From positions 192,997-256,996 of the forward strand of contig JAEHCQ010000004.1 in assembly GCA_020696385.1 (NCBI GenBank): 64,000 nt of DNA, written 5' to 3'. Shown in pieces: positions 15,103-57,977 of the stretch; the stretch's first letter is position 1; every line of letters begins with the position of its first letter. A program made the translations under genes and the position numbers. The notes below the pieces were generated by a model. That model was not told where the DNA came from, did not search any database, and saw only the letters and a list, made by a program, of their open reading frames with translations. This stretch comes from Methanobacteriota archaeon (GTDB lineage Archaea; Thermoplasmatota; Thermoplasmata; SG8-5; JAGLSY01).

Positions 15103-15103
15103 G

Positions 15104-15823: not shown

Positions 15824-15931
15824 TCACTTCGTTCTCGCATTCAAAGTCGGGCTTTCGTATGTGGGGGCTCTGCCCACACATATGAAACTTCGAATACTGT
15901 TCGAAGTTCCCAATGCGCTCCTTGCAGTCGC

Positions 15932-35478: not shown

Positions 35479-35508
35479 ATTTATTTTTTGAAGATTTGGT
35501 TGATTATT

Positions 35509-35934: not shown

Positions 35935-36058
35935 TAGATCCAACTCCTTTCCTACTGGTAATGTTCTAAGCCTGTATGATATATAATTATTACTGCTGAA
36001 TATTTGATCTTCCAAACTGGCAAATATTTAATATCGAATTGGCCATTCCTGCAAATAC

Positions 36059-36757: not shown

Positions 36758-36846
36758 GATATCATTGGTCTTAAAGGGCGATAAGTTCATCTACATTACT
36801 TAACGATAACAAAAGGTAAATATTCTATTTGCATATTCGAGTCCAT

Positions 36847-37494
36847 ATGGGTTCGAAAGTCACCACTTCCATTCGATCAATAATGTTCACTGTGATCATC
36901 ACCGCATTTCTGCTCACAATAGCCCTAGGTCATGCCAGTGGCGATGATGATGGTAAAGGCGATCTGGATGATGATTGTGTTGGTTGTCATTCGGATGGTG
37001 GTAGCGGAACTGTTTCTATCAGTTCCGAGTTTGATACTTTCGAGGCTGGTCAGGATGTTATAATATCCATTCCGGTCAATATGGATTCCAGTGATTCGGA
37101 TGCCATGATGCCTGGTGTGATGATATTGTCAGGAGCTGGATCCAATGTTAAGGGCGATGGCTGGACCATATCCTCTGATCCAAATGGCAATGCACTGCCA
37201 ATGAACTATAATGAGATGTCTGGCATATCTGGTGAGACTGAATTTCAATGGACTCTGGTGGCACCTGAAACACCAGGAGATTACTCGGTTTTCGCAAGAC
37301 TCATCTACGATGACGGCGGGGCCAAATTCTTAGAGACTGAGGCCCTTTCCTTCACAATAACAGAGGCCTCATCAGTTGCATCAGACACTGATACAACCGA
37401 TGAGAGACCAGACCAAACACCCAAAGCTTTAAGTTTTGGAATATTGGTCGGCATTGTGGGAATAATGATAATAACAATACTGAGGCGTAGATAA
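36847..37494 (+). CDS. Secreted monoheme cytochrome c with C-terminal membrane anchor
   Basis: Signal peptide, single CVGCH, beta-rich FQWTLVAP segment, TM + RRR tail. Confidence 0.7.
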   Translation: MGSKVTTSIRSIMFTVIITAFLLTIALGHASGDDDGKGDLDDDCVGCHSDGGSGTVSISSEFDTFEAGQDVIISIPVNMDSSDSDAMMPGVMILSGAGSNVKGDGWTISSDPNGNALPMNYNEMSGISGETEFQWTLVAPETPGDYSVFARLIYDDGGAKFLETEALSFTITEASSVASDTDTTDERPDQTPKALSFGILVGIVGIMIITILRRR

Positions 37495-38579
37495 TGGCTG
37501 GCGAAGGAACTCCAAAGAATGCGGGCAAGTCTGCAGGTTTAGTTGGAATGCTGGTGCTAATCGCAGTTATGGCGATCGCGGTGATCATTGTACTTGCTTC
37601 CTATTCCGTATACACTGATTTTGTTGGCGAGGAAGTTCCTGTTCTCCATGTGGAAGTGAAATTAAGTGATGGAGAATATGATGACAATGCTGATAGATGG
37701 ATAACCCAGACACAATCCTATGCTCCATATATCAAAGACTTGGGCAGTGATGTCGATGTTTCATTATTGTATGTGGATGCTCTGGACGCCCCAGCTGACG
37801 GGACATTCCTTCTTGGTGAAAGGCCCGTTGTAGTGATATATGCTTTCAATATGGATGATAATTGGAAGACTGGTAAGGCCTCTACAAAGTACATTGGCTC
37901 TGGCGATTACACATTCAATATAACTTTCCCATATACTCCCGAAACAGGTGATCTCATAAAGGTCGTTATTGAAGTTGCCTATGATAAGGATGTATATCCG
38001 AATGAGGACGTGTATCCGCTCTTCAATTCCGATAGATCCAGTGTTATTTATCATTGGGGAGTGCCCAATATGGATTCTGGCTCTGACATAATTGCCAATT
38101 CCGAGTTTGACCGTGAAACAATAGAGATATCTGATCACGCTGTTGAGAGTTATAGATGGTTCATGGAATCGGGAGATGGAAATATAGCCTTTGGATCGCC
38201 TGACAAGGCCATGACCTCTATAAGTGCTGATGTAGATGGTACTTATGTGATCGCTATTGAGGCAACAGATGATCTGGGCAACTTGGGCTATGATAGTTTC
38301 ATTCTAATATGGGATACTACTGCACCTGATGTGGATGTGGGTTTGGATGTAATTAGTAACTCCACAATAACCAAAACAGCTACGGTCAGTGATACTAATG
38401 GCATATCGAATTATACATGGGAAAGAGTATCCGGCCCGGGCTATGTATCATTTAGTTCGCCATACGCTCCAATTACCGATATAGATGCATCAGTTCGTGG
38501 TAATTATACTGTACAATTAAGCATCATTGACAGTGCAGGGAATGTGGCCGTTGATGAGTTCGATTGGGTCTTCGAATAA
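37494..38579 (+). CDS. Hypothetical membrane-anchored protein with PKD/Ig-like repeats
   Basis: N-terminal TM; two Y.W....G.G...F.SP...T...A...G.Y...L...D..GN...D.F repeats. Confidence 0.65.
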   Translation: MAGEGTPKNAGKSAGLVGMLVLIAVMAIAVIIVLASYSVYTDFVGEEVPVLHVEVKLSDGEYDDNADRWITQTQSYAPYIKDLGSDVDVSLLYVDALDAPADGTFLLGERPVVVIYAFNMDDNWKTGKASTKYIGSGDYTFNITFPYTPETGDLIKVVIEVAYDKDVYPNEDVYPLFNSDRSSVIYHWGVPNMDSGSDIIANSEFDRETIEISDHAVESYRWFMESGDGNIAFGSPDKAMTSISADVDGTYVIAIEATDDLGNLGYDSFILIWDTTAPDVDVGLDVISNSTITKTATVSDTNGISNYTWERVSGPGYVSFSSPYAPITDIDASVRGNYTVQLSIIDSAGNVAVDEFDWVFE

Positions 38580-38764
38580 GTATTTTAATAGGCTTAGTAT
38601 ATAAAGAAAATACCTGACATATTACCTACTATATAAAAGAAATACTCAATACTATTAACAATATTTATATACCATGGCTCTAATTATCATCCAATCTTGA
38701 AAACAGATCGAACCAGAGAGAAAACTCTCCGATAATTCTCGGGGTGAAGTAAAGAGGTGAATAA

Positions 38765-39388
38765 ATGAAAAACAGAACATTAGTTCTAGCAGTATCAGTA
38801 CTGTGCGTGGGAATAATGATCATGCCGTATACGGTATCATTGTTTAGCACCCAGCACGACTGGAAGGCCGGAGCTGACGTGAATTGTATGACCTGCCACA
38901 CGGATATAACAGAACCAGGCGCATCATACATGCACGGCAGCATGACCTCTGGAACAGCACAGGAATACTGTACATCTTGCCATCAGTTAGGCACACCAGG
39001 ATCCGGTGACGGTGTCACTGGTGACGGTGGCTTTGATGACGAGCATGCAGCAGTTTCCGTTGAGTGTTTGGATTGTCACGAGACATCCCAGAGTGCAGGC
39101 GCTATTTCAGACGTATGGTACAGTGGCACAGGAGCTGAGGATGCTCTGGCAAACAAGGCTTTCATAAACAATGCAACAGAAGCCCACAGCAACATGACTG
39201 GAACGGCATCACTTGATGAGGGAGCATGGGCATCGGATTACCTTGCTGGTAACAACGAGGCCTGTATCGCATGTCACACAAATGTGACACTCGAGACATA
39301 CCTTACCGTGACCGCTCAGACACTGAACATCACTGCTAGTGAGAACATATGGGGCAACTGGACTGTAACCTTTACAGCCAAGCCATAA
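38765..39388 (+). CDS. Tetraheme cytochrome c, archaeal extracellular cytochrome nanowire (ECN)-like subunit
   Basis: Signal peptide ending P.TVSLF..QH.W; CMTCH, CTSCH, EHAA...CLDCH, EAH...NEACIACHT; no anchor; strong GAGGTGA SD. Confidence 0.75.
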   Translation: MKNRTLVLAVSVLCVGIMIMPYTVSLFSTQHDWKAGADVNCMTCHTDITEPGASYMHGSMTSGTAQEYCTSCHQLGTPGSGDGVTGDGGFDDEHAAVSVECLDCHETSQSAGAISDVWYSGTGAEDALANKAFINNATEAHSNMTGTASLDEGAWASDYLAGNNEACIACHTNVTLETYLTVTAQTLNITASENIWGNWTVTFTAKP

Positions 39389-39405
39389 GCCATAATATAA
39401 AGAAT

Positions 39406-39445
39406 AAAGAAGAAGGCTTGACCTTCTTCTTTCCTTTTCCTTTTT
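39406..39445 (+). terminator. Terminator after the tetraheme gene
   Basis: AAAGAAGAAGG-cttga-CCTTCTTCTTT stem followed by CCTTTTCCTTTTT. Confidence 0.65.
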
Positions 39446-39476
39446 GACAATTACTTTTTGATTAACTTTTATACCT

Positions 39477-40346
39477 GTGAAGGCTAATGGAAAAAATATC
39501 ATGATGGTGAAAAAAGAAAAACAAAAACTGGATGAAAAAGGCCAGACCAATCTGAGGAACAATATATTCTTTGTAGCCTCATCATTAATGATAGTAGCTA
39601 CCATAATCCTTCAAAATCCCTTGATCGTTTTCTCTCTTTTCCTTTTGACGGTACTTCATCTATTGCACCATTCCAAAGCAAATGGCAATGAAGCACCCAA
39701 GTCATTCTTCAAAAGCCTGATAGATTATAGAAAGAGAAAAAAGTTAGAGCGTCTCACACAGAATAGAATGACACTCATAAGGCAGAAATTCTATCGCCCT
39801 CGCAATCTCATTCTATTTGTCCCTCTTATAATATGTATAATAGTATTGTATCTATTTCTTTCACATACTATATTCTTTGCAGTTGTGACCTCTGATAGTA
39901 TGAGACCGACCTTCAAAACCGGCGATCTCCTGCTTATGCAGGGGAAAGGCTACACACTCGATGATGAAGATATAATAATGTTCACCACCCCGGAAATACA
40001 GGAGCTGGTCATTCACAGAGTGGATGATATTGAAGATGATGGCGGAATATTGACAAGAGGAGATGCGACCAACCATACGGATAATTGGGTCATTGAGAAA
40101 GATAATGTCCAGGCGGAAGTATTGGAATTCAATGGCAACCCCGTAGTACTAAAGAACACAGGCTGGTATTTCATTGATAATGCACCAGAGGATTCCGCGG
40201 TCTTTTCCGATGAACTGCAATTCACATCATTGATGATGATGACCCTGAAGGAAATAGGAATGGTGATGTTCATAGCTGCAATATTCATGTATCTATTGCT
40301 CACAGCGAGAGATATAAGATTTGCCTCGGCTACCAGGAGAAAATGA
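39477..40346 (+). CDS. Signal peptidase I (S26, archaeal/SipW-like)
   Basis: AVVTSDSMRPTFKTGDL (Ser), LVIHRV (His), TRGDA...D.W. Confidence 0.88.
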   Translation: MKANGKNIMMVKKEKQKLDEKGQTNLRNNIFFVASSLMIVATIILQNPLIVFSLFLLTVLHLLHHSKANGNEAPKSFFKSLIDYRKRKKLERLTQNRMTLIRQKFYRPRNLILFVPLIICIIVLYLFLSHTIFFAVVTSDSMRPTFKTGDLLLMQGKGYTLDDEDIIMFTTPEIQELVIHRVDDIEDDGGILTRGDATNHTDNWVIEKDNVQAEVLEFNGNPVVLKNTGWYFIDNAPEDSAVFSDELQFTSLMMMTLKEIGMVMFIAAIFMYLLLTARDIRFASATRRK

Positions 40347-40364: not shown

Positions 40365-42359
40365 TTGAAAATTATGATTGGTCAGGAAGCTACTATGAAA
40401 AACACGGATAAGATCGAGGGATTCAAAACATTATTGAGGGGCCGTGACGGCCTTTGGGAGTGTATGGAGAATCTGGATGATGGCGATATATCCAATTCCG
40501 TAGAATGCTTTGATATTTTCATTAAGAACAACCCTGATGATATAGATGGCCACATAGGAAAGGCATTGGCCATTTATGAGACTGGCAGGTGGGAAGATGC
40601 CATTAAGGCTCTGACTGAGGGTCTGAAGCTGGATCCTACATATGAACTGGGTCTTTTGATCCGGGCAGAAATGCTAAGGGCGAATGGAAAGCAGGAATTC
40701 GCCTTGAAATTCTATGATAAATTATTATCGATAGCACCTTCAGATGAGAATTATATAGCAAATAGGGTCGAAATACTCAAGGAACTTGGCCAATACGAAG
40801 AAGCTGAGCAGCCAATTGAGGAAATAGATCAACCTGTAGAGGAAGTTGATCGACCTGATGATGAAGCAGAGATACCTGCTCAGTCAGTTGAGCCAGATGC
40901 AGGCGATTGGGATGCCGGTGCGATCGGTGGCGAATCACAAGACGAATCCTTTGTTACCGAACAGCCAGAGGCCATAGAATCAGATTCTGAAGCTTCTTCT
41001 GATGAGGATCCACTTACCGAAAAGGTCATGATGTTCAGAGGGATGAAAGTAACTAGATCATCCGAGTCAACCTTTGAAACAGCTGATGAAGAAGAGACCT
41101 TGAAGGTGATAAAGACCAAAAAAGAGGATGTAAAAAGAACATCCACTCCACATGACAAATGTCCAAAATGCGGTTTCATGAAAGCCGAGACAGAGGCATG
41201 CCCCTTCTGCTCCATAGATGATGACCTCGCGGCTATCGAAGGAGGGGAGATATCCACCGAAGACTTTGTAGGTGAATTGGCTGATACCGATAGCCTTGAC
41301 GATCTGGATCTGGCAGAGCTGGACAAGTTAAGTGCTGAGGAAGAGATAATTGAAGAAAGTCTCCACTTCGAAGAGGATCTGGAGGAATTGGAGGAAATGG
41401 TCTGTGAGAGCTGTGGTGGTATTCTTGATTCATCAAGTGAGTTCTGCAATTCATGTGGCGTAGTGCATGATGATAAGGTCATGTACATGAGGGGGACCAA
41501 AGTCTCCAAGGTATCGACCGACGATAAGCCCATCCTCAATAATTATGAAGAAGATAGATGGTCTTCTTTTGTAGACAAGACAAGATCCGAAAAGAGCCGT
41601 AGTGTAAATATCATCGGAGTTTTCTCTATAATATCTATCGCCATATATCTGATATTCCTGTCCATGTTGGAATTATATGACAGCATATTCGTTGAATTTG
41701 ATTCAATATCTTTCTTCCCGAATATCATCATCTTTTTACTGGGCTTTGGAGCCCTGTATGGTGGAGTGAACATTGCCAGAAACTCCATTGTCTTTGATCA
41801 TTTCCTTGACTCTATCTTCGAGACCGAGGTATATCCTAGATTGGAACCCGCTCTTGAGGAGGTCGCGCAGGTGCAGGCTCGTCTGGAGAACATCGAGGAA
41901 AGGATAGACCGTATGAACCTGAACATCGCTAGGTCCAAGCAGTACCCATCAGCCGCCGAGTTCCCGGCAGTTGCGATATCCAACAGAATATCATCCTTCC
42001 TCAAGATGGTGATCGTGACCAATATAACGATTGGAATAATGATATATGTAATTCTTTATCCTGGTAGCTACGTGCCCTATATCTTCACCATAATGTTCAT
42101 GCTATGGTGGGGTGTCATTACAGATGATTATAAACTATGGAAGAATGCGATATCATGGGCCTGGGCTATCATTCCTATATTTGCTGTACCTTTCATGTCC
42201 ATATTCCTTTATGTCGTCATACCAATTGGCTCCCTTATCGGGCTTGTTGGCGGCTTCCTCATGATATACACCTATGCTTACTTCGCCTGGGTTAGATATT
42301 ATGTCGAAGGAAAACTCCCATTTGACCTATATGAAGCCCAACTTGAAGAGGAAGAATAA
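40365..42359 (+). CDS. TPR + acidic linker + zinc-ribbon + multi-pass membrane protein
   Basis: N-terminal TPR-like helices, CPKC..CPFC and CESC..CNSC, coiled coil between TM groups; ATG 40395 is a likely start. Confidence 0.7.
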   Translation: MKIMIGQEATMKNTDKIEGFKTLLRGRDGLWECMENLDDGDISNSVECFDIFIKNNPDDIDGHIGKALAIYETGRWEDAIKALTEGLKLDPTYELGLLIRAEMLRANGKQEFALKFYDKLLSIAPSDENYIANRVEILKELGQYEEAEQPIEEIDQPVEEVDRPDDEAEIPAQSVEPDAGDWDAGAIGGESQDESFVTEQPEAIESDSEASSDEDPLTEKVMMFRGMKVTRSSESTFETADEEETLKVIKTKKEDVKRTSTPHDKCPKCGFMKAETEACPFCSIDDDLAAIEGGEISTEDFVGELADTDSLDDLDLAELDKLSAEEEIIEESLHFEEDLEELEEMVCESCGGILDSSSEFCNSCGVVHDDKVMYMRGTKVSKVSTDDKPILNNYEEDRWSSFVDKTRSEKSRSVNIIGVFSIISIAIYLIFLSMLELYDSIFVEFDSISFFPNIIIFLLGFGALYGGVNIARNSIVFDHFLDSIFETEVYPRLEPALEEVAQVQARLENIEERIDRMNLNIARSKQYPSAAEFPAVAISNRISSFLKMVIVTNITIGIMIYVILYPGSYVPYIFTIMFMLWWGVITDDYKLWKNAISWAWAIIPIFAVPFMSIFLYVVIPIGSLIGLVGGFLMIYTYAYFAWVRYYVEGKLPFDLYEAQLEEEE

Positions 42360-42361
42360 TA

Positions 42362-43834
42362 ATGACCAGTTTATCATCTATATGTGAGGATCATCTTGGA
42401 TGTTCCTCATTACCAAAACCCCTTGCCGTTCTATTATTATCATTAATATTTCTCATGCTGATCGGTTTGCCAACAGCAGCACAGGAAGACCCCCCCATGA
42501 ATGCGACTGGTTACAATCATTGGCTGGAGATCATGCAGGGTGATATACCGGATTCCGAGCAGGTGGAAGCTGATAATATGCTACTGGTCCATGATACCAT
42601 GTTCTACGTGGTCCCATGGTATGAGTCCCGGGTTTACATGAGCATTCCAAATGGCGCGGAGGTCGTGTATATACTCGATGTTCACAACCTGTTCAATAAT
42701 GGTTCATGGGGTCAGTCCGAGTATGTGGATTGGTACTATTGGGAATTCGAACAGGGTGCTGATAGAGATATGTACGCCTTCGTGGAGCATGATTCAAGTG
42801 CTGTTTTTTCCCAGGGTGATTATGATGCAACTCTGTTCGATATCAATGACAATGGAACATCACTGAAGTCAAACATCACATATGGCGAGTACACGTCACT
42901 CAGCATCACCAATTCCGAGATCGTGAACTTCACATCCGCCAGTCCTATTTTCAATTCCAACTCGAGTAATGTGACCTTTCAGTTATCCAATGATAATGGA
43001 ACAACATGGATCGCATGTGGTAGTGGTGAGACTATAGATTTCACAACCAGTGGTAATGAGCTGAAATATCGGGCTATCTTATCAGATAATCCAGTCACCC
43101 AGCCGGATATTTCCAATATCACCATAGAATATTCATACACACCCCAGTCCACCATCATCGCCCTCAGATCTGAATATGTGATATTCAGCGAGACCGATCC
43201 CCTCAGTTTCAATATGCAGAAACAGCTTATGTACGATATAAGCGATGTCAATATCCTATTCTATCATGACCCTGGCTTTGAACCCGGATCCGATAATATC
43301 ACATGGATGCAACATTATGAGATAAATCCCGCGATGCTTGAAGCATTTGAAAAGCCTGGCAAGGAGGTTCATATAGGCTCGGCGACACCCGGTCTTCTGA
43401 TCTCTATGTCACTTGTGGAGGGACATGGAGATGATGCCGCTGGTCCCAATTATTACCTCTATTCCATCATAGCTGTTATAATAATAATTTCATTGATGGG
43501 CATTTACCTGTCAAGGAAAGACTCTGACCTGGAAGGTGATGACTTGAAAGATACAAGTTCATCCGAGACCCTGGAAGATGGCGAACCATCCGAAGATGAG
43601 GCTGATAAGGACGATGACATAGAGAAAGCGGAAGTGCCAGAAAACGAGGACACTGAAGCATTTGTGGAAGTCAATGATGATTTTTCAACTCAGAAAGAGA
43701 ACATCCTGAAGGCCATCAAGAAGCTCGATGCTGACCTGGAAAGCGGTGACATATCAAAGGATGTCCATACCGAGCTCAAAGCCAATTACAAGAAGGAAGC
43801 GGTTAGGGTAATGAAGGAACTGGATAAGCAGTGA
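42362..43834 (+). CDS. Hypothetical single-pass surface protein with CcmI-like C-terminal motif (paralog of 23754..25457)
   Basis: Shared VPW...VY.SIP.G, S.D.G..W, TP.I..I.IEY blocks; tail IKKLDADLESGDISKDVHTELKANYKKEA. Confidence 0.7.
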   Translation: MTSLSSICEDHLGCSSLPKPLAVLLLSLIFLMLIGLPTAAQEDPPMNATGYNHWLEIMQGDIPDSEQVEADNMLLVHDTMFYVVPWYESRVYMSIPNGAEVVYILDVHNLFNNGSWGQSEYVDWYYWEFEQGADRDMYAFVEHDSSAVFSQGDYDATLFDINDNGTSLKSNITYGEYTSLSITNSEIVNFTSASPIFNSNSSNVTFQLSNDNGTTWIACGSGETIDFTTSGNELKYRAILSDNPVTQPDISNITIEYSYTPQSTIIALRSEYVIFSETDPLSFNMQKQLMYDISDVNILFYHDPGFEPGSDNITWMQHYEINPAMLEAFEKPGKEVHIGSATPGLLISMSLVEGHGDDAAGPNYYLYSIIAVIIIISLMGIYLSRKDSDLEGDDLKDTSSSETLEDGEPSEDEADKDDDIEKAEVPENEDTEAFVEVNDDFSTQKENILKAIKKLDADLESGDISKDVHTELKANYKKEAVRVMKELDKQ

Positions 43835-43911: not shown

Positions 43912-46900
43912 TCAAGAGCCGAAATCTGTCTTATGACATTCCCAATTTGGATATGTATTGGCTGTTCCTGATGGATTAGCTCCAGGATAAAGCCAAGTCC
44001 TTGGAGTCCCAGAAACAAAGATCGAGTAATATCCATTTGCATGCGCGCCAGTGCCGTACATCTCATTATCCGCTCTGGATGGTAAGAAGTGGCATGTCCT
44101 ACATGGAACTTCGCCATTCTCTGTGAAGTCACCATCATTATCGAAGTCCCACATATCTCCTTCCTCAGCATCCTGATGAGCTCCAGTTGTATGCGGATAA
44201 GAACCAGGATGATCCACACCTGTGGTTCCTTCAACATACATCTCGATCCTGGATCCATGGCAGTTACCACATCCAACCGCTGGATTATCCCAGTCTGCTG
44301 TTGCACCTGCCCAGTTGCCCCAACTATTATCCACTCCAGCCACACCTCCTGAATTATCATCCACAGCATTACTGTGGCACCATGTGTTCGTGCAGGTCTG
44401 TGTTGCCGCAGTATATGTGGGGTTGGTCCCTCCCCAGTTGAATTGATCCGAGATGGATGCTGGATCAACTGCTGTGTATACCTGTGTGGTCATATCCACA
44501 TGCTGGCTTGTTCCATAAGTACCAAGACCAGCGGTCGGTGGAGTATTGTAATGGCATTCTGAGCAATCATAATCATACCATGCGAAGTAAACATCCCACC
44601 ATGGTCCGCCATCGTAATTCGTGATGCCGGCCCCATCGCCCCATGTTGTGCCTGCGCTTATTGCATCATATTGGAGAACCCAGTGATCTGCCGTGAGTTG
44701 CTCATCCGTGGCTATGGTAAGCAATGTAGTGCCGCCATTAGTACTCTCTATGATGATGGTCTCCTTGAAACCGCCTCTTCCATCATAATTGCCATCATGA
44801 TCGGCATCCATGTATGCCACCCGGTCAACCGCGTTCGCATTGGATTGGATGTGCTTCCAGGTTCCAGATGGTCCAGCTCCTGTGTACAGTCTTTCTCCTT
44901 GCTCCCAGTAGGTTCCGTCGCCATCCATGTCGAAGCATATGGATTCCTGATAATCGTAAGCATTATCACCGTTAGCATCTGCCCACCAGACATCATCTGT
45001 GGCAACAAAGCGAGTTATATCTGCCAGACCTGGAGTGATAATCTCATCTGGTGAACCAACACCATTCAAACGTCCTGGATCAAGCAGGTAAACGCCGTCA
45101 TTATCGCTTATGACGGCCTCATTCGCATCATATGCTCCATCTCCGTCATTGTCGATGTATGCCAGGTTTCGCGTCGCGCCCCACGCGCCTCCAAAGTTAC
45201 GCGTGTGCTTCAGATGGCTGGCACTGTTTCCAGTGACAGTGCCGCCCAGCTCTCTGTCGGCTCCATCATTGTAATTCGGCATACCGTGGCAATCGCCGCA
45301 GGTCATGGCTGTTAATGAGTTCCATGCGGGAGTGGTGAAGTATATGTCTCCAGCTCCCCCGATATCATATCCATTGCTGTGACAGTAGATATTGTCACAG
45401 GTGTCATCACCATTGTAGGCTGGAGTTACACCACTACTACCGCCATATGTGCCAATGCCAGCGGGGTCGAACAGTACATCCACCTTTCCATCAACGTGAA
45501 GGGTGCTTCCATATGTTGTGTCGGTCCAGCCAGCGGCCGAGGTCCCTGCCACATAATGACATTCTGAACAATTGAAATCATACCAGGGGTCTGCATCTGG
45601 TATGTTATTGCTCGTATGCCTTCTGTGAGCGTAAGATGTCATTGGTATATCGTGGCAATCCCCACACCCTACATTATCCGCGAGCCAATCCGGTGTCACG
45701 CCAGGTGAGAATCCACTGGCATTACCATCACTGTGGCAGTATGTATTGGCGCATAGTGAATTGCTGGTCGCATTGTAGGTCGGTGAAAGTGCATTGGCAT
45801 ATGTCGCTATGCCGACCGTGGATGGAGCGGTTGTATTGAACCTCACCTGCAATGTTCCATCTCCATGCTCGGCTGTTCCATAGGTGTTGTCATACCATCC
45901 ATCTTGATCTCCAGCTGAATTGAAATGACATTGCGAACAATTGTAATCGTAATCTGGAATACTCCAATCAACAACGATATGCTTCACGTGTTGGTAGGAA
46001 TCTGCACCACAGTCTATTCCACCTGGGTGACATGCTCCGCCCCATTCCCTGCCATCTGGATGGCAATTCGCATCATTGACATCACAGGTTCCATATGAGG
46101 CATCGCCTTCTAAAAGTGAACCGGTATTGTCTGGGTATAGATTGGCCGTGGTGATATAAGCGTCAAAGTCACCAGTGAAATCGAAACTGATCTGTCCGTC
46201 AATGTGGGAGAAGGTATTGTCCCCTGGTAAGTATAGGCCAGTCTGCAGATGGCATTCACTGCATATCATATTCGCCCTGGCTGGATTGAGATGTCCAGTA
46301 TGGCTTCCTGTCTCTATTGGGGTTGTATCTGCCCATTCTCCGCCGTGGCATAGATCACAGGCCGCGGTAGTGGCATCTCCCCAGTTGGGAAGCCATGGAG
46401 TTATGGTAGCATCATCATCAGTAACAGCATCATGGCAATAAACATCACATGTATTTCCTGAAACATAATTGACCATGGTCCAGCCCCATTCGGTATTGGT
46501 CTGAAGACCAGGTGGGAATCCCGCGCCTGCATTGTCCCACCATGCTACATCGAAATCACCATCGACGTGGCTTGCGGTCCCATAGGTGCCGTCGGTGGAT
46601 GGACTGCCCGCAACGCTGTCCCAGTGGCATTCTCCGCAACGATAAACCTCTGCCTCCGCATGTTCTGGATGATTATTGGTCAAAGGCTTATTGCCCACGG
46701 TATTGTCTCCGTGGCAGCTACCGCCACCACCCGCACTGCAATAACTGGTCGCAGCATTATCCCACACAGGAGTTGGATCCTTCGCATTGCCATCTACACC
46801 ATCGGTCGGGTCGTGGCAGAAGATATCTGAACAGGTGTCAGTTCCGCTATTCCAAACTCCGGTGAAGGCGGCATTACCGAACTGTAATGCCAGTCCGGTT

Positions 46901-49900
46901 GCAGTGTTATTGAAAACGACCTGAACTTGCCCATCAACATGCTGTGATGTTCCATAAGTTGTGTCATACCAGCCAGAGCCAGCACCTGAACTTCCGGCCA
47001 CGAAATGACATTCTGAACAATTGAAGGTGTATGGAGATCCATTGCTATGCTTCGGATGGCTGGATGTTGTTGGTGCCATGTCGTGGCAGTCTCCACATGC
47101 GACACCTGGTGTGTCCCATTCAGGGGAGGCCGCGTTCCATGAGAAGCTAGCGGGGTATCCATCGCTGTGACAGTATGTGTTGTCACATTCCATATTGGTT
47201 GTCGTGTTGTAGGCTGGTGCCAGGTTATTGGCATATGTCGCAATACCGACTGTGGAAGGAGCGGTGGTATTGAACCTCACCTGCAATGTGCCGTCTCCAT
47301 GCTCGGCTGTTCCATAGGTGGTGTCGTACCATCCATCCTGGTCTCCAGCCGAATTGAAATGACATTGTGAGCAATTGTAATCGTAATCCGGTATGTTCCA
47401 GTCTGCAGCCATGTGTTTGCCATGCTCATTGGAGTCTGCACCGCATAGTATTCCGCTTGGGTGGCATTCTGCAGTTGGGTTATGTCCCTCTGTGGGATCA
47501 AATGGATAATTGTGCTTATAATGGCAGCTTGAAGAAGTACAGTCATCACGGCCACTCACGACCCATGATGTGGAAGTTCCATGGGTGGGTGGTGTTTCTC
47601 TGGGATCTGTAGCATCCACAACACCATTGTCAACAAGATGACATCCTCCAACTCCCATGTCTTGGTCGCCACATCCCTGGATACTGCTTCCTCCGAAGAG
47701 CTGGGCGCCATCATCTGTATCATCTGGTTTCAGTAAATGATCTGGATGGCAGTCCACACACTCCACGGTCCCGTCTGCATCGATAAGGGTGCTGGTGGTG
47801 TGCTTCGCACCATCATTGGTGAAGCTCGTGAAGATGTCCTTCATCCACGGTGTGCTGGCATCCTGATATGGAACTCTCGAGTCCAGATCCGAGTAATGGC
47901 ATACCACGTCGCAGAAGGCATTGTCCACATTGGTGTCCGCAGCCGCTGCATATGTTGTCCAGTCTATATCGACAACATGAGGGATATCATGCGGATACCA
48001 TGGCTCTACTGCCGTGTCATGGCAATCCTCGCAATGTGTGTAATCGTAATTTGATATTGATTCATTAAGATGGTTGATGTATTTTCCGCTTCCAAAGGGA
48101 ACTGGATTGGTTCCAGTATCATCATGGCAGTCGGCACAACTGCTGACAACTCTTGGGTATACCTGTTCGAAGGCCGTTGTGGATGTATTCCACACATTGA
48201 CGGTTTGATCTGGCTCTGTCCAAACTTGGATTATGAGGCCGGAACCGGGTGCAGATGAGAAATCATGCCACATGATATGTATCTCATCAATTGAAACTGT
48301 GTCCTGCTGTACGGCGTCCCCTGAGTTCGTGTCAATGACATTCAGGTATATCGGGCCGGACATCACGGGAATTGATGCGGAATATGCGGTCAATGCGACA
48401 TTGTTTACCGTTATCACAGGAGTATAAGGTCCTCCCTGAATTGTAGAATATCCGATATCGAAATCATCATCACCGGCTGCGCGGCTGGCATTGACCAGTA
48501 ATGTGAGATCGTCCGCTCCAGCGGGTATGGACTCTGTTCGCCAGATATGTTCGAGCGAGTAAGTGCCTCCGACTGATTCGATCCATTGAATTCTTATTCT
48601 TTCAATGGTAACATCATCCGCCTGGCTATCAACAGCATTATCATCCACCACTCTGAGGTAAAGAACACCGGAAGTAGCTCCCGGGAAGTTCCAGTTGTAT
48701 GAAGTGAGTGTATCTGAGTTGATGGTTATCGTGGTCGGATTGTATGTCGCATCATCCGTGGACCATTCTATGGTGAATGTATCATCGGAGCCAGTATTGT
48801 AATTTCCCTCGACATAAAGTGTCAGGGTCGTCGCTCCCGCAGGTATATTGTCCGTGCGCCAACGATGCTCCAGCGAGGCCGTGACAGGATTGCTGACAAG
48901 ATGCTGTATTCGAACAATATCAATGACAACGCTATCCGCCTGGCTGTCTGCTCCATTATTGTCCACAACACTCAGATAAAGAACACCAGATGTTGCTGCT
49001 GGGAAGTTCCATGAATAGGTGGCCATGGCATTGGTATTTATGGTTATTGTCGTTGGATTATAAGTCACATCATCAGTTGACCAGTATATCGTGAATGTAT
49101 CGTCAGAGCCAACTGGATTGTACTGCGCATCCACGAAGAGTGTGAGAGTATCTGCTCCTGGGGCTATATTGTCCGTTCGCCATCTATGCTCGAGGCTGGC
49201 AACAACTGGAATGTTCTCATACCATTCCAGGCGAATTGTATCTATCTGGCAGGTGGTGAGTAATGCATCTCCTGTATTGTCATCTATTATCTGGATGTAA
49301 AGAACACCGATCTCGCCCAGTGGGAAAGTGAATGGCGCGTAGGTGGTCATCGCGACATTGTTTATGTTTATGCCAGTATCCACATATGATATATCATCAT
49401 TTGACCAGAACACACTGAACACATCATCCCCTGGAGCTGTTGATAATGCTCTCACATAAAGATTGAGAGCGGTGTAGCCAGCCGGAATGCTGTCCGTTGT
49501 CCATTTGTGCTCCAGTGAAGGAGCTCCTCCAGCAGTGGTCACAATGACCTTGATGTAATCGAATGATACCGCATCGCCTCCTCCTCCATCATTGTTCTGG
49601 AATCTGACGTCCAGGGTGGATATCTGAGCCAGAGTGGTCACACCCTGGGCAAAGAGATTGTATTGTGCAGTGAGATCCACTTGTCCATTTGTTGGCGTTA
49701 TGCCTGTGGTTGCCTGTGCTCCACCATTCAGTGCCCAAGTGATGGCATTTGATCCAGTGTATCCTCCTTCAACAGAGTATTGGACCTCCAACATGACTCC
49801 GGTCACAGTTCCGCTCATTCCACCAGTGTTGAAGGCATCCATGAAAAGGATCCTGTTCTTATCAACAGTGTACCAGCCATCACCTGCTGCTACCGCACCC

Positions 49901-51654
49901 GGAGAGGCTCCTGCAGTATCATCTGCATTGATCTCGTTTATGAGCTCTGTTGTGGTGTCTGTTCCGCCCACGACACTGGCGAATGCATCTCCACCAACTC
50001 CGCTAGCCGCGACTTCCTGTATGGTCTCGATATCTCCCACAGCGGGGTTTTCATCAATATTCTGCCAGTATGGTGGACCTGCTGTACCGCCCACAGTTCC
50101 TTCAACCGCGATATCGGATGCAACCGTGTAATTGGCCCAAACATCACCGCCAGTAGTCGCCTCAGTTATGGTCTGCGTAAGCCCATCTGATGGATCGATC
50201 TCGTCAATATTGGTGTAAGTGTTGGTGACCGTTCCATGATTAGCCGCATTTAGCTGATCCAGGTCCACTGTGTAATTGGAATAGACATCACCGCCAGAAG
50301 TGATCTCGGTGATGGTTTCAATAAGCCCATCAGCCGGGTTGATCTCATCAATGTTCAGATAACCATTGGCTGCAGGTACGACAGTTCCGTGAACAGCCGC
50401 ATTTGGCTGATCCAAGTCCACTGTATAATTTGCATAATTATTCGCTCCACCAGCGACCTCCTGTATGGTCTGTACTCCAGCTCCATGAGTGTTTGCCTCT
50501 GTTCCTGCAACAGTGCCGTGATTGGCAGCATCCACAGGATCCAGATCCGTGGTGTAATTGGCCCAGGTGTCAACTCCTCCACCACTTCCAACAGGGTCAA
50601 GCCAGTTATATCCACTGTGACATCCCCAGCACAGATCTCCTTCTTTCTGATGGGACATGCCAGTTGCGGTTGTTATCTCATTGAAGATCGTGGTCATATT
50701 TGCGGAAACATGTGTGTCACCACGATCATGGCAGCCATTTAATCGATTCGCACAGGTGATGTTCTTGGCCGCGTGATATTCAGTATCCGCAACCTCCTGG
50801 CTATCAACATGGCAGGAGTCGCACGCTGTGTTCATAAGATGAGTCAGATTGCTCGGTTGTGTCGCTGTATGGTGACCACCGCTGTCGCCCAATCTGGACG
50901 CCACGACATCATTGTGGCACCCACTAACTCCATCTCCACAGCTCACATCATTTACACCAATGTATGTATGGGATTCGCCGGTCTTTGTCCATGTGTATGT
51001 GTTCTCATGCGTTGAAGTGCTGGTCTCCACATTCGTGATCGCGTAGTTCACATCTACAGTGAAATTGTAAAAATCCGGGCGTAAGAAGGTCACGTTCACA
51101 TCGAAGCCAGTATGACAAACGATACAGGCCTCATTAGGTCCTCTGTTGTATATGCTGTTTGGTGCATTGCTGAATAATTCACTGTGTGCTTCAGTAGCGT
51201 AGCTGATATTGGTTGCAACTGTGGGATGACAGCTAATACAAGTAGGCAATGTGGCCGCGTGTTCGTCCCCATACTCCGCAGTAACATCCTGATGACAATC
51301 TGGACATGTCATTCCCTCATGTGGCTCAATACCTGGCGTCCCCAGCATGTTCGTGAACTCCTGGCTAACATCCGCATGGCAATCATCACACGCCTTTCCC
51401 GAGTTCCAATCATGCTGATCAGAAAATAATGAGACTGTAACTGCTCCAATAGATATGGCGGCTATGGCCAGTATCATCATCAAAAGCAGAGCCTTCTTCG
51501 ATACCAATATAGACGGAGTAGAGGTGAACGACTTCGCCGCAGTGGTACTAATAGATGAATCTGCACCCGGGCCGCCCCCGACCTCCGGGTTCATATCTGG
51601 CTGACTATCAATGTCAGGTCCATTTTCTATATCCATTGCCATGTTGATCAGCAA
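43912..51654 (-). CDS. Giant multiheme cytochrome c (2580 aa; 22 CxxCH plus about 13 CX3-9CH)
   Basis: Manual motif count; N-terminal ECN-like modules, heme-free beta-sandwich region, repeated CxxxxCH...CxxCH (Geobacter-type) units; exact start uncertain (ATG 51642 or 51636). Confidence 0.92.
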   Translation of the reverse strand: MLINMAMDIENGPDIDSQPDMNPEVGGGPGADSSISTTAAKSFTSTPSILVSKKALLLMMILAIAAISIGAVTVSLFSDQHDWNSGKACDDCHADVSQEFTNMLGTPGIEPHEGMTCPDCHQDVTAEYGDEHAATLPTCISCHPTVATNISYATEAHSELFSNAPNSIYNRGPNEACIVCHTGFDVNVTFLRPDFYNFTVDVNYAITNVETSTSTHENTYTWTKTGESHTYIGVNDVSCGDGVSGCHNDVVASRLGDSGGHHTATQPSNLTHLMNTACDSCHVDSQEVADTEYHAAKNITCANRLNGCHDRGDTHVSANMTTIFNEITTATGMSHQKEGDLCWGCHSGYNWLDPVGSGGGVDTWANYTTDLDPVDAANHGTVAGTEANTHGAGVQTIQEVAGGANNYANYTVDLDQPNAAVHGTVVPAANGYLNIDEINPADGLIETITEITSGGDVYSNYTVDLDQLNAANHGTVTNTYTNIDEIDPSDGLTQTITEATTGGDVWANYTVASDIAVEGTVGGTAGPPYWQNIDENPAVGDIETIQEVAASGVGGDAFASVVGGTDTTTELINEINADDTAGASPGAVAAGDGWYTVDKNRILFMDAFNTGGMSGTVTGVMLEVQYSVEGGYTGSNAITWALNGGAQATTGITPTNGQVDLTAQYNLFAQGVTTLAQISTLDVRFQNNDGGGGDAVSFDYIKVIVTTAGGAPSLEHKWTTDSIPAGYTALNLYVRALSTAPGDDVFSVFWSNDDISYVDTGININNVAMTTYAPFTFPLGEIGVLYIQIIDDNTGDALLTTCQIDTIRLEWYENIPVVASLEHRWRTDNIAPGADTLTLFVDAQYNPVGSDDTFTIYWSTDDVTYNPTTITINTNAMATYSWNFPAATSGVLYLSVVDNNGADSQADSVVIDIVRIQHLVSNPVTASLEHRWRTDNIPAGATTLTLYVEGNYNTGSDDTFTIEWSTDDATYNPTTITINSDTLTSYNWNFPGATSGVLYLRVVDDNAVDSQADDVTIERIRIQWIESVGGTYSLEHIWRTESIPAGADDLTLLVNASRAAGDDDFDIGYSTIQGGPYTPVITVNNVALTAYSASIPVMSGPIYLNVIDTNSGDAVQQDTVSIDEIHIMWHDFSSAPGSGLIIQVWTEPDQTVNVWNTSTTAFEQVYPRVVSSCADCHDDTGTNPVPFGSGKYINHLNESISNYDYTHCEDCHDTAVEPWYPHDIPHVVDIDWTTYAAAADTNVDNAFCDVVCHYSDLDSRVPYQDASTPWMKDIFTSFTNDGAKHTTSTLIDADGTVECVDCHPDHLLKPDDTDDGAQLFGGSSIQGCGDQDMGVGGCHLVDNGVVDATDPRETPPTHGTSTSWVVSGRDDCTSSSCHYKHNYPFDPTEGHNPTAECHPSGILCGADSNEHGKHMAADWNIPDYDYNCSQCHFNSAGDQDGWYDTTYGTAEHGDGTLQVRFNTTAPSTVGIATYANNLAPAYNTTTNMECDNTYCHSDGYPASFSWNAASPEWDTPGVACGDCHDMAPTTSSHPKHSNGSPYTFNCSECHFVAGSSGAGSGWYDTTYGTSQHVDGQVQVVFNNTATGLALQFGNAAFTGVWNSGTDTCSDIFCHDPTDGVDGNAKDPTPVWDNAATSYCSAGGGGSCHGDNTVGNKPLTNNHPEHAEAEVYRCGECHWDSVAGSPSTDGTYGTASHVDGDFDVAWWDNAGAGFPPGLQTNTEWGWTMVNYVSGNTCDVYCHDAVTDDDATITPWLPNWGDATTAACDLCHGGEWADTTPIETGSHTGHLNPARANMICSECHLQTGLYLPGDNTFSHIDGQISFDFTGDFDAYITTANLYPDNTGSLLEGDASYGTCDVNDANCHPDGREWGGACHPGGIDCGADSYQHVKHIVVDWSIPDYDYNCSQCHFNSAGDQDGWYDNTYGTAEHGDGTLQVRFNTTAPSTVGIATYANALSPTYNATSNSLCANTYCHSDGNASGFSPGVTPDWLADNVGCGDCHDIPMTSYAHRRHTSNNIPDADPWYDFNCSECHYVAGTSAAGWTDTTYGSTLHVDGKVDVLFDPAGIGTYGGSSGVTPAYNGDDTCDNIYCHSNGYDIGGAGDIYFTTPAWNSLTAMTCGDCHGMPNYNDGADRELGGTVTGNSASHLKHTRNFGGAWGATRNLAYIDNDGDGAYDANEAVISDNDGVYLLDPGRLNGVGSPDEIITPGLADITRFVATDDVWWADANGDNAYDYQESICFDMDGDGTYWEQGERLYTGAGPSGTWKHIQSNANAVDRVAYMDADHDGNYDGRGGFKETIIIESTNGGTTLLTIATDEQLTADHWVLQYDAISAGTTWGDGAGITNYDGGPWWDVYFAWYDYDCSECHYNTPPTAGLGTYGTSQHVDMTTQVYTAVDPASISDQFNWGGTNPTYTAATQTCTNTWCHSNAVDDNSGGVAGVDNSWGNWAGATADWDNPAVGCGNCHGSRIEMYVEGTTGVDHPGSYPHTTGAHQDAEEGDMWDFDNDGDFTENGEVPCRTCHFLPSRADNEMYGTGAHANGYYSIFVSGTPRTWLYPGANPSGTANTYPNWECHKTDFGS

Positions 51655-56245: not shown

Positions 56246-56246
56246 A

Positions 56247-57827: not shown

Positions 57828-57977
57828 AGGAATCGAAAGTAGATATTCATACAAGATATAAAGGTTACTCTGGATAATTATACAATATAATACAAACCTA
57901 TAGGAATTTGTAGCATTTACATTAATTTCCATTTGATCGAGAAAAAAGCAAAGTTCATAATCATTAAAGCCCCTGTC

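Follow-up and report, generated by a model that had tools for sequence, protein, structure and literature searches.

Genes and features of the locus

The stretch of DNA under study (the window) comprises 64,000 nt of contig JAEHCQ010000004.1, positions 192,997-256,996, in assembly GCA_020696385.1 of a Methanobacteriota archaeon belonging to the Thermoplasmata. It encodes a small tetrahaem c-type cytochrome, an archaeal-type signal peptidase I and a polytopic membrane protein in succession, together with further secreted and multihaem proteins. The features, with coordinates counted within the window, are as follows.

36829..37494, + strand: monohaem (CVGCH) protein, 221 aa, with a signal and a C-terminal transmembrane segment (NF041895 'choice-of-anchor V', 36.1 bits against a cut-off of 42)
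37494..38579, + strand: N-terminally anchored protein with PKD-like domains, 361 aa (PF22352, E 2.8e-13)
38753..38760, + strand: Shine-Dalgarno-like sequence AGAGGTGA, 4 nt ahead of the ATG (5 nt spacing when counted from GAGGTG)
38765..39388, + strand: tetrahaem c-type cytochrome, AvECN-family homologue, 207 aa (open reading frame, match to 8e5g_A, conserved haem sites)
38765..38839, + strand: predicted Sec signal peptide, residues 1-25, with putative cleavage after Ser25 (P21-Y-T23-V-S25 / L26-F27; hydropathy and conservation)
39406..39446, + strand: terminator-like hairpin of 11 pairs (39406-39432), then a T-rich tract, in the intergenic region that separates cytochrome and peptidase
39477..40346, + strand: archaeal-type signal peptidase I (S26), 289 aa, of an ECN-cytochrome-linked subfamily (TIGR02228 and catalytic boxes)
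40365..42359, + strand: fusion of cytoplasmic TPR repeats, zinc ribbons and a C-terminal polytopic membrane domain, 664 aa (Pfam, hydropathy)
41565..42359, + strand: membrane domain of the 664-aa fusion, homologous to a stand-alone membrane protein beside the peptidase in other archaea
42362..43834, + strand: 490-aa protein with an N-terminal signal or transmembrane segment, an external domain with 10 sequons, a second transmembrane segment and an acidic tail (hydropathy)
43912..51654, - strand: giant multihaem cytochrome, 2580 aa, with 22 CxxCH and 8 wider-spaced sites (open reading frame, motif counts)
51010..51492, - strand: N-terminal signal and ECN-like tetrahaem module of the 2580-aa cytochrome, with a TVSLF-x-x-QHDW site (match and translation)

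An earlier note on this DNA had described the tetrahaem gene as having a strong Shine-Dalgarno sequence and its own terminator; a Shine-Dalgarno-like sequence and a terminator-like hairpin were found. AGAGGTGA lies upstream of the ATG, and GAGGTG or AAGGTG precedes the start in all five orthologous loci compared. The 11-pair hairpin and T-rich run stand 3' of the gene; a comparable hairpin and T-tract follow the tetrahaem gene in three related loci (L004, L005 and L007), and a hairpin with a T-run occurs in an ANME-1 locus (L013). Our scan returned 3 terminator-like sites, against 1.3 +/- 1.1 in shuffled sequences.

The 207-aa protein contains four CxxCH sites (C41, C69, C101 and C167) and a total of eight histidines, at residues 31, 45, 57, 73, 94, 105, 141 and 171. 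Four of these belong to the motifs and four are spare, which matches the need of four bis-His haems. Across 67 diverse relatives, no variation is seen at the four CxxCH sites or at the spare H31, H94 and H141, and at least 90% keep H57. The motifs quoted in the earlier note are all present, namely TVSLFSTQHDW (23-33), EHAA (93-96), EAH (139-141) and NEACIACHT (164-172), and where it mentioned several N-x-T sequons we counted six N-x-S/T sequons, at N3, N136, N143, N173, N188 and N198. Hydropathy gives a single hydrophobic segment, residues 6-24, so that the description of the protein as anchorless is correct for the C-terminus but not for the N-terminus, which has a helix that we read as a cleaved signal.

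Upstream of the tetrahaem gene, the 221-aa monohaem protein and the 361-aa PKD-like protein are conserved in L004, L005, L006 and L008. Just upstream and syntenic are the menaquinone-type genes ubiE and one for a radical SAM protein with a BATS domain. The 490-aa protein is conserved in L004, L005 and L007 and belongs to no Pfam or NCBIfam family (Pfam searched to E <= 10). Elsewhere in the cluster, secreted proteins carry signal peptides of the ordinary kind. A Ccm system is encoded within the 64-kb window, as are a cytochrome b561 beside an 8-haem protein and a transmembrane-anchored 11-haem protein; the b561 with its 8-haem neighbour and the 11-haem protein are candidates for quinol oxidation. 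McrA was not found in the genome.

Relationship to AvECN

The tetrahaem protein is homologous to AvECN, the subunit of an extracellular cytochrome filament reportedly described by Baquero et al. in Cell in 2023. From motif patterns, the earlier note had guessed at membership in this family of ECN nanowires, and database searches agree with the guess. In a phmmer search of the PDB, residues 6-181 matched 8e5g_A with E 2.4e-12, the next match having E 0.2, while a profile of 19 relatives matched the same chain with E 6.6e-21 over positions 6-194 of 203. This chain was the sole significant PDB match; all others, in the single-sequence and profile searches alike, had E values of at least 0.03, and neither search yielded a match to PcECN (8E5F). 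A review identifies 8E5G as AvECN, the filament subunit of Archaeoglobus veneficus (PMC12954529).

The two proteins have four CxxCH motifs and four distal histidines in identical order, the counterparts lying in QH, AH, EAHAA and EAH in the alignment, and they share the N-terminal stretch P-x-T-x-S-L-F-x-x-Q-H-x-W and the sequence N-E-A-C-I-A-C-H-T at the fourth haem site. They differ in length, with 262 residues in AvECN and 207 here. The alignment ends at chain residue 216 of 262, nothing in the tetrahaem protein corresponds to the final 45 or so residues of AvECN, and identity in structural alignments is 24-25%. Moreover, AvECN, whose filament has been solved, comes from the Archaeoglobi, and the tetrahaem protein, a putative filament subunit, from the Thermoplasmata.

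Structural comparison led to the same protein. The AF2 model of the tetrahaem is haem-less and mediocre (pLDDT 68.8); a model built from the 19 sequences of the shallow alignment A1 reached pLDDT 52.4 and was not used for structure searches. With the better model, Foldseek ranked 8e5g at the top (E 0.099, TM 0.39; next E 3.6), and VIA aligned 132 residues to it with Z 5.1 and an rmsd of 6.5 A, making it the sole chain of 48,161 with Z of at least 2. Such likeness to ECN structures, which the earlier note proposed to look for, is directed to 8E5G alone in the VIA comparison and is moderate, both values falling below the usual significance levels. A complex prediction with two copies of residues 26-207 and four haems gave ipSAE 0.00 in both runs, with an uncertain partner fold, and counts neither for nor against binding.

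Other four-haem homologues of AvECN have been named on similar evidence, and we set them beside the 207-aa tetrahaem by description. According to the parts of the sources on which we draw, MmcX of 'Ca. Serpentinarchaeum aceticum' Met12 was recognised by AF2 superposition, is expressed in situ at about ten-fold over the median and, when produced in Shewanella, supports the uptake of electrons (PMC11176372). ECN-Mv, from 'Ca. Methanoperedens vercellensis', has 29% identity to AvECN with E 3e-12 (PMC13748539). The MmcX clade is given in the same portion of PMC11176372 as ANME-1, ANME-2, ANME-2d, Syntropharchaeales and Archaeoglobales, the Thermoplasmata not being among them.

The 2580-aa cytochrome of the window bears a related module, positions 51220-51492 matching tetrahaem residues 5-107 with E 1.1e-8 and 37% identity. 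Five open reading frames in the genome have at least two haem sites and two of them have the special N-terminal site; genome-wide, the SLF..QHDW motif occurs in the 207-aa tetrahaem and the 2580-aa cytochrome alone. The ECN-like module and its N-terminal site also head 5-, 6-, 8- and 9-haem proteins, so that the module is not restricted to filament subunits.

N-terminal site and signal peptidase

At the N-terminus of the tetrahaem protein, residues 6-24 are hydrophobic, the n-region is basic, and P(-5), T(-3) and S(-1) form the pattern of the putative site; M20, P21 and T23 are invariant among 19 close relatives. The more general pattern P-x-[TAS]-x-[SAT]-x-[FYL]-x-x-x-H is present in 126 of 170 family proteins, with T in 104, A in 18 and S in 4 of the 126 at position -3, and S in 81, A in 39 and T in 6 at position -1. 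Sec signals are carried by cytochrome nanowires (PMC12337348), and the conserved P-x-T-x-S/L-F-x-x-Q-H site likely marks the point at which the tetrahaem precursor is cleaved.

The S26 peptidase reported directly after the tetrahaem gene is a 289-aa open reading frame (39477-40346) that scores 67.4 bits against the NCBIfam model for archaeal signal peptidase I, TIGR02228, which has a cut-off of 51.85. Its Pfam scores are at or just over threshold (PF10502, 22.9 bits against 22.9; PF00717, 24.6 against 23.3). Invariant in nine sequences are S141-M142-x-P144, G149-D150, H180-R181, G195-D196-A197 and D202, which we take to be the catalytic serine in S-M-x-P, a histidine in H-R that replaces the bacterial lysine, and the G-D-x...D box. 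Three hydrophobic segments were found, at 39-57, 111-129 and 252-270. The start is ambiguous and may be GTG 39477 or ATG 39501/39504, the latter two agreeing with database entries of 281 and 280 aa.

Whether this peptidase is dedicated to the cytochrome, as the earlier note supposed, depends on the sense of the word. Synteny, phyletic co-occurrence and a distinct subfamily favour the claim, but no second S24/S26 peptidase was found in the genome (94.5% complete), TIGR02228, PF10502 and PF00717 giving one match each, so the enzyme may also be the cell's general signal peptidase. It is thus dedicated in that it travels with the cytochrome cluster, not in being additional to a general enzyme. The comparison with SipW fails in the strict sense, since the match to the SipW model NF046067 is weak, at 37.9 bits where its cut-off is 190, and a housekeeping S26 paralogue was not found. 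In a looser sense the systems are alike: the peptidase lies in an operon beside its presumed substrate and is inherited with it, and in both SipW-TasA of Bacillus and TafD/TafG-Tafi of haloarchaea a filament cluster likewise has its own signal peptidase. The haloarchaeal system places an archaeal/ER-type S26 enzyme and an accessory membrane protein in the operon of a filament-type subunit (PMC12337348). The substrate there is a jelly-roll pilin, whereas here it would be a cytochrome, and the Pfam search (including E <= 10) gave no DUF5305-like match among the cluster neighbours of the peptidase.

Co-inheritance of the cytochrome, peptidase and membrane protein

L004, L005, L007 and L008 retain the succession of tetrahaem, peptidase and membrane protein, with tetrahaem proteins 54-89% identical. 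Of 61 relatives, five have the tetrahaem and exactly those five have the membrane domain, and TIGR02228 matches within the order are confined to the same five of 22 genomes; these counts represent few independent lineages, with two genera in the order, where the whole Ccm/cytochrome island co-varies. The other 17 genomes of the order (59-94% complete) gave no TIGR02228 match and, for PF10502, one weak match alone (16.5 bits, G019). None of tetrahaem, peptidase and membrane domain was found in 8 further relatives that have Ccm.

Outside the order, in a related-loci search made with the narrower alignment A3, 7 contigs, from ANME-1, Syntrophoarchaeum, Methanosarcinales and other Halobacteriota, were found to carry a peptidase of the subfamily within an AvECN-like cytochrome cluster, and the membrane protein adjoins the peptidase in 5 of these 7 loci. 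Five genomes with AvECN-like loci have a subfamily peptidase scoring 179-198 bits, and two of the five also have a second S26 enzyme, at 49-61 bits. An iterated local HMM of the peptidase gave no more copies in the 83 loci scanned. In none of the 34 loci labelled Archaeoglob- or Geoglobus did the flanking sequence examined around the ECN gene contain the peptidase, so adjacency is not a rule for the ECN family. The peptidase is not a chance neighbour of the tetrahaem gene.

The 664-aa fusion that follows the peptidase, and keeps that position in the four syntenic loci, has four transmembrane-like hydropathy peaks. Pfam at E <= 10 gave nothing credible for its membrane domain. Homologues of the domain were found with E 5e-24 to 3e-32 in five loci (L069, L073, L077, L083 and L090), and it adjoins the peptidase in L092 and L095. 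In alignment A5, W181, W182 and W198 (A5 numbering) are invariant and about six helices can be counted by eye.

A comparable pair has been described before. In the part of Chadwick 2022 (PMC9012536) on which we draw, a signal peptidase and an unannotated '8x TMH' membrane protein are encoded together in multihaem clusters of ANME, Syntrophoarchaeum, Geoglobus and Ferroglobus, the peptidase and the '8x TMH' protein are lost together with the cytochromes, and homologues of the membrane protein were not found outside those groups. Homologues of our peptidase and membrane domain adjoin each other in loci of ANME-1 and Methanosarcinales, in agreement with that system. Here, however, the domain occurs in the Thermoplasmata and is fused to TPR and zinc-ribbon domains, and the likeness to the '8x TMH' gene is one of description, with eight helices there against about six by eye, or four hydropathy peaks, here.

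Alternative explanations

It is possible, if somewhat doubtful, that the tetrahaem protein is secreted and processed without polymerising and serves as a monomeric or S-layer-space carrier between the 8- and 11-haem cytochromes and the 2580-aa cytochrome. The missing last approximately 45 residues of AvECN would suit such a carrier, as would the presence of the ECN-like module at the start of the 2580-aa cytochrome and of proteins with 5, 6, 8 and 9 haems, and a recent paper describes the physiological roles of archaeal ECN filaments as unresolved (Nat Commun 2026, PMC13748539). On the other hand, the one structure solved in the family is that of a filament, and the Shine-Dalgarno and terminator layout suits a bulk structural product. 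An insulated wire would also fit the ratio of about 45 residues to each haem, the five sequons that are conserved and the conserved beta-hairpin at the C-terminus; soluble tetrahaem cytochromes are smaller. Were the N-terminal helix left uncleaved, the protein might instead be a membrane-anchored tetrahaem quinol dehydrogenase like NapC, NirT or CymA, passing electrons from menaquinol to other cytochromes. Its size of about 200 aa, single N-terminal helix and four haems fit that description, PF03264 matches with E 1.9e-4, a homologue is entered in one source as 'nitrate/TMAO reductase-like tetraheme cytochrome c subunit', and ubiE and the radical SAM/BATS gene lie in synteny just upstream. We nevertheless hold this to be very improbable, since significant homology goes to AvECN instead. 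The PF03264 match reaches 21.6 bits, less than the cut-off of 24.1, and covers residues 56-111 alone; the NrfH model TIGR03153 scores 21.7 bits against 134.2; and no NrfH- or CymA-type chain appeared among the 48,161 searched, an absent match being weak evidence. The end of the helix has the conserved Pro(-5), Thr(-3) and Ser(-1) of a typical signal peptidase I site, His-His ligands are conserved for all four haems, and the b561 with the 8-haem protein and the transmembrane-anchored 11-haem protein are better candidates for quinol oxidation.

The peptidase could likewise be read as a general signal peptidase I whose position beside the cytochrome has no functional meaning. It is the sole S24/S26 match in a 94.5%-complete genome, and signal peptides of the ordinary kind occur on further secreted proteins of the cluster. 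Yet 17 genomes of the same order, 59-94% complete, have no TIGR02228 match, so that the lineage manages without this peptidase. Its exact co-occurrence with the tetrahaem and the membrane partner, the presence of its closest distant relatives in ECN-type cytochrome clusters of other phyla, and the coexistence of such relatives with a weaker-scoring second S26 enzyme in two of five genomes all make a purely general role unlikely.

Proposed mechanism and significance

On balance, we think it probable that the locus encodes an AvECN-family cytochrome that is secreted, probably N-glycosylated and cut by the neighbouring peptidase, and that most likely forms wires or provides an extracellular electron link. 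The precursor would be exported by Sec and loaded with four haems by the Ccm system, whose genes also lie in the window. The S26 peptidase, of the Ser141/His180/Asp type and encoded 89 nt downstream, would then cut after Ser25, probably in partnership with the adjacent polytopic membrane protein that is here fused to TPR and zinc-ribbon domains. Such a cut would leave His31, a haem ligand, as the sixth residue of the mature chain. By homology to AvECN, the mature protein would most likely stack head-to-tail as a haem wire, or at least act as an extracellular link. We infer a path that may run from menaquinone through the b561 with its 8-haem protein and/or the 11-haem cytochrome to the tetrahaem, then to the 2580-aa cytochrome and an external acceptor or donor.

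A bolder extension, which we put forward tentatively and consider rather unlikely, is that the N-terminal signal, the S26 peptidase and the membrane partner act together as a system devoted to sorting and assembling cytochromes with the ECN module, analogous to SipW/TasA or to sortase-type systems. It would have two clients here, the 207-aa wire subunit and the 2580-aa cytochrome, the latter joining as a cap or a cell-proximal base. If this were true, the trio would supply the missing apparatus by which archaeal cytochrome nanowires are matured and launched.

The observations of the earlier note are confirmed and its interpretation, a highly expressed filament subunit with a dedicated processing enzyme, is partly supported. 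High expression would be in keeping with the Shine-Dalgarno and terminator features and with the level reported for the relative MmcX. The link between peptidase and cytochrome is already known for ANME from the part of Chadwick 2022 cited above (PMC9012536), and the ECN homologues MmcX and ECN-Mv are known as well. What is new is a member of the Thermoplasmata with an AvECN-type cytochrome and a full respiratory and Ccm island. The locus is a compact and clean case, having one peptidase, one membrane partner and two open reading frames with the special N-terminal site. The tetrahaem is a putative wire subunit, and a trio common to distant archaea may offer a concrete lead on how electron-carrying cytochromes are matured.

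The tetraheme gene and its family

The earlier note had described a small tetraheme gene with flanking signals and an adjoining S26 peptidase, and open reading frame, motif and HMM data confirm this observation. The features concerned are as follows.

38753-38760, + strand: AGAGGTGA, read from the sequence ahead of the tetraheme gene
38765..39388, + strand: tetraheme cytochrome, 207 aa, from the translated window
39406-39432, + strand: hairpin of 11 pairs with a T-rich tail, 3' of the tetraheme stop codon, from a hairpin scan
39477..40346, + strand: signal peptidase I of archaeal type (67.4 bits with TIGR02228, whose cut-off is 51.85)
40365..42359, + strand: 664-aa TPR/zinc-ribbon fusion with a C-terminal membrane domain (the membrane partner)

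The tetraheme has a single hydrophobic segment (residues 6-24) preceded by MKNR, CxxCH sites at C41, C69, C101, and C167, five N-x-S/T sequons past the signal (N136, N143, N173, N188, and N198), and no C-terminal anchor in its 207-aa sequence. Its histidines number only eight (31, 45, 57, 73, 94, 105, 141, and 171), which matches exactly the eight needed by four bis-His hemes. A similar hairpin and T-tract follow the tetraheme gene in the related loci L004, L005, and L007, the stem sequence differing in L005. A hairpin and T-run likewise trail the gene of ANME-1 locus L013 that resembles AvECN, the tetraheme subunit of the Archaeoglobus veneficus extracellular cytochrome filament.

Judged by homology, the tetraheme gene is a real AvECN-family gene, and the earlier note had correctly recognized it as a member of the archaeal family of extracellular cytochrome nanowires (ECN). 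Among all PDB sequences the sole significant match is 8e5g_A (E 2.4e-12, query residues 6-181), the next best reaching E 0.2 in this single-sequence search, and with a profile of 19 close relatives the match improves to E 6.6e-21. Entry 8E5G is reported as the A. veneficus filament AvECN (PMC12954529). Neither the PDB sequence search nor the profile search matched PcECN (8E5F). AvECN is the longer of the two proteins, and the profile alignment stops at residue 216 of its 262-residue chain. A HMMER search of 1.84 billion representatives returned 309 relatives with a threshold of E <= 1e-3, a number that falls to 169 with E <= 1e-10. Across 67 diverse relatives all four CxxCH sites, H31, H94, and H141 are invariant, and conservation reaches at least 90% at P21, Q30, H57, and T172.

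In the Foldseek comparison with ECN structures that had been suggested, 8e5g ranked first, at E 0.099 and TM 0.39 with a model folded without heme, and the runner-up reached E 3.6. This model, built with 67 sequences, had a pLDDT of 68.8, compared with 52.4 from 19 sequences, a weakness expected of a heme protein folded without heme. VIA-align gave Z 5.1 and an rmsd of 6.5 A over 132 aligned residues, and in a search independent of Foldseek 8e5g_A was the sole chain with Z >= 2 among 48,161 representative chains. The likeness of the predicted model to 8e5g is consistent with the homology and is no independent proof of fold.

The putative cleavage site

Conservation at the end of the tetraheme signal peptide is unusually strong for such a region; M20, P21, and T23 are invariant in close relatives, and V24 and L26 nearly so. 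The motif P-x-[TAS]-x-[SAT]-[LKTVMI]-[FYL]-x-x-x-H occurs in the first 90 residues of 126 of the 170 family proteins retrieved, with its proline at residue 21 or 22 in 79 of them; many of the other 44 proteins are fragments or one-residue variants. Among the 126, position -3 is T in 104, A in 18, and S in 4; position -1 is S in 81, A in 39, and T in 6; and position +2 is F in 110, Y in 12, and L in 4. The classical signal peptidase I pattern has small residues at -3 and -1 and a helix breaker at -5. The tetraheme is predicted to be cut after Ser25; the new N-terminus would then lie six residues away from His31. In its own genome the SLF-x-x-QHDW site is confined to two ORFs, the tetraheme and the 2580-aa giant cytochrome.

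Co-inheritance of the tetraheme, peptidase, and membrane partner

Database gene calls start the peptidase at ATG 39501 or 39504 (281 and 280 aa). Nine aligned peptidases of its subfamily share invariant S141-M142-x-P144, G149-D150, H180-R181, G195-D196-A197, and D202, the Ser/His/Asp box pattern of S26 enzymes. Across the class, S26 signal peptidase I is undetected in most genomes (TIGR02228 has matches in just 14 of 61 and PF10502 in 11 of 61, own genome included); both searches do score in archaeal control genomes.

Loci L004, L005, L007, and L008, from other Thermoplasmata and Methanomassiliicoccales-labelled MAGs, retain the gene order (monoheme protein, PKD protein, tetraheme, peptidase, TPR/membrane protein, and 490-aa protein; the giant cytochrome lies on the opposite strand), with tetraheme identity of 54-89%; locus L006 stops within the tetraheme. 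We surveyed 61 genomes, namely its own and 60 relatives, of which 22 belong to the same order. The tetraheme is present in five (G000-G003 and G016), and the membrane domain in exactly the same five. Among the 22 same-order genomes TIGR02228 is found solely in these five, and the PF10502 search agrees, apart from one additional match of 16.5 bits in G019. The 17 same-order genomes without the three genes are 59-94% complete. Cytochrome maturation (Ccm, PF01578) was detected in 13 of the 61 genomes, and the eight outside the five gave no match to the tetraheme, TIGR02228, PF10502, or the membrane domain, so the pattern is not merely one of cytochrome presence. Within the order, however, Ccm varies together with the entire island, and the five positive genomes represent two genera only, which implies few independent events.

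A more distant scan covered 78 AvECN-like loci, from the best 80 of 223 confirmed matches, and five Thermoplasmata loci. Local phmmer and HMM searches of these loci found 12 ORFs of the peptidase subfamily, four in Thermoplasmata and eight (L013, L069, L072, L073, L077, L078, L083, and L090) on seven contigs labelled ANME-1/Methanophagales, Syntrophoarchaeum, Methanosarcinales, Halobacteriota, or 'Halobacteria'. In the distant operons the peptidase sits amid 3- to 9-heme proteins, nearly all starting L-P-x-T-x-S-L-F-x-G-Q-H-x-W, and a membrane-domain homologue of 270-330 aa lies near it in L069, L073, L077, L083, and L090. None of the 34 Archaeoglob- or Geoglobus-labelled loci had the peptidase in the fetched flanks. 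We then searched five whole genomes with AvECN-like loci lacking a nearby peptidase, four labelled Archaeoglobaceae or Archaeoglobales and one 'uncultured archaeon'. Each held one full-length subfamily peptidase (179-198 bits), two held a second S26 protein of only 49-61 bits, and in two of the five the membrane protein adjoins the subfamily peptidase, as judged from flanks of only 1.5 kb.

The peptidase is a distinct paralogue associated with ECN-type cytochromes; in some cases its gene shares their operon, and in others it lies apart from them in the genome. Synteny, the phyletic pattern, the Ccm contrast, the distant loci, and the Archaeoglobi genomes all point to it as part of the cytochrome system, and a cluster-specific enzyme is supported by synteny, phyletic co-occurrence, and subfamily membership.

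The cytochrome and respiratory island

The window forms an island of cytochrome and respiratory genes, with four of the genome's five ORFs that have at least two CxxCH sites.

14410-16660, - strand: ccmC, ccmB, and ccmA
16689-17393, - strand: cytochrome b561-type protein, directly adjoining the 8-heme cytochrome
17394-18599, - strand: 8-heme cytochrome
21819-23168, - strand: 11-heme cytochrome with two N-terminal helices
25564-27672: CcmF
43912..51654, - strand: giant cytochrome, 2580 aa, with 22 CxxCH sites, 8 wider-spaced sites, and 24 sequons
55157-57932: Nuo/Fpo-type subunits
Also in the island: HdrD-like CCG protein and FAD-linked oxidase; polyprenyl synthase and geranylgeranyl reductase

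The giant cytochrome is headed by a complete ECN-like tetraheme module with the same TVSLF-x-x-QHDW site as the tetraheme; window positions 51220-51492 match tetraheme residues 5-107 at E 1.1e-8, and the remainder, through N-E-A-C-I-V-C-H-T, is legible in translation. In relatives the same module also stands first in open frames that range from 246 to 2598 aa, many of them on short contigs. The membrane partner has an N-terminal extension of about 400 aa (40365-41560, +) that combines TPR repeats with an acidic linker and two CxxC pairs resembling zinc ribbons; it is missing from the stand-alone ANME and Archaeoglobi homologues and may serve as a module for docking or regulation in the cytoplasm.

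Two conserved genes lie upstream (36829-38579, +). One encodes a 221-aa monoheme protein that has a C-terminal helix and matches 'choice-of-anchor V' below threshold, the other an anchored protein of 361 aa containing PKD-like domains. Both are syntenic in L004, L005, L006, and L008 and were unseen in the ANME loci, save one marginal PKD361 match (E 7e-06) in L038. Directly upstream again (34501-36757) are genes for a BATS-domain radical SAM protein, an OsmC-like protein, and a methyltransferase of ubiE type; the three keep their synteny with the cytochrome cluster in L004-L006, which hints at a menaquinone link. A 1481-aa fusion (5418-9863, +) of pyridine-nucleotide-disulphide oxidoreductase, FAD-binding, and 4Fe-4S domains is followed by further ferredoxin-like genes. 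McrA (PF02249) had no match in the 94.5% complete genome, and the Thermoplasmata host appears non-methanogenic.

Relation to previous work

Chadwick 2022 (PMC9012536) describes multiheme-cytochrome clusters of ANME-2a, ANME-2b, ANME-3, and ANME-1 that encode a signal peptidase together with an integral membrane protein lacking annotation ('8x TMH'). That paper reports the membrane-protein gene from Syntrophoarchaeum, Argoarchaeum, Geoglobus, and Ferroglobus too, proposes cytochrome-maturation roles, and found no '8x TMH' homologues in other organisms. The AvECN homologue MmcX is reported to be expressed in situ about ten-fold above the median and to rescue the electron uptake of a Shewanella mutant (Suzuki 2024, PMC11176372), and a 2026 Methanoperedens paper describes ECN-Mv, a 29%-identical homologue (PMC13748539). 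Haloarchaeal Tafi clusters are reported to encode a signal peptidase of their own, TafD, along with the helper TafG (PMC12337348). A 2025 preprint treats the secretion and assembly of nanowires as still unanswered. Novelty is limited to five points, and Baquero 2023 may already treat gene neighbourhoods: an AvECN-type cluster in a Thermoplasmata host, a membrane partner fused to cytoplasmic TPR and zinc-ribbon domains, the short 207-aa form of the subunit, a 2580-aa cytochrome headed by an ECN module, and a quantified cleavage-site motif.

Proposed role of the tetraheme

Since the peptidase gives the only S24/S26 match found in its own genome, it might be purely a housekeeping enzyme whose position beside the tetraheme is meaningless, a view made improbable by the phyletic distribution and the subfamily data. 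That the tetraheme is an uncleaved NapC/CymA-like quinol dehydrogenase is very improbable, as its PF03264 score falls under the cut-off and the window holds better quinol-oxidase candidates. It could conceivably be a processed carrier that does not polymerise, an outcome we consider possible if somewhat doubtful.

We lean slightly toward the whole reading of an exported, Ccm-hemylated, peptidase-cut, N-glycosylated AvECN-like wire subunit, or at least an outer electron link. The precursor would be exported by Sec, its hemes would be joined by the local Ccm system, and the cluster's own peptidase, probably with the membrane partner, would cut at S25|L26. Outside the cell, the N-glycosylated product would then serve as a wire subunit like AvECN or, at a minimum, connect the membrane cytochromes with the giant cytochrome as an outer link.
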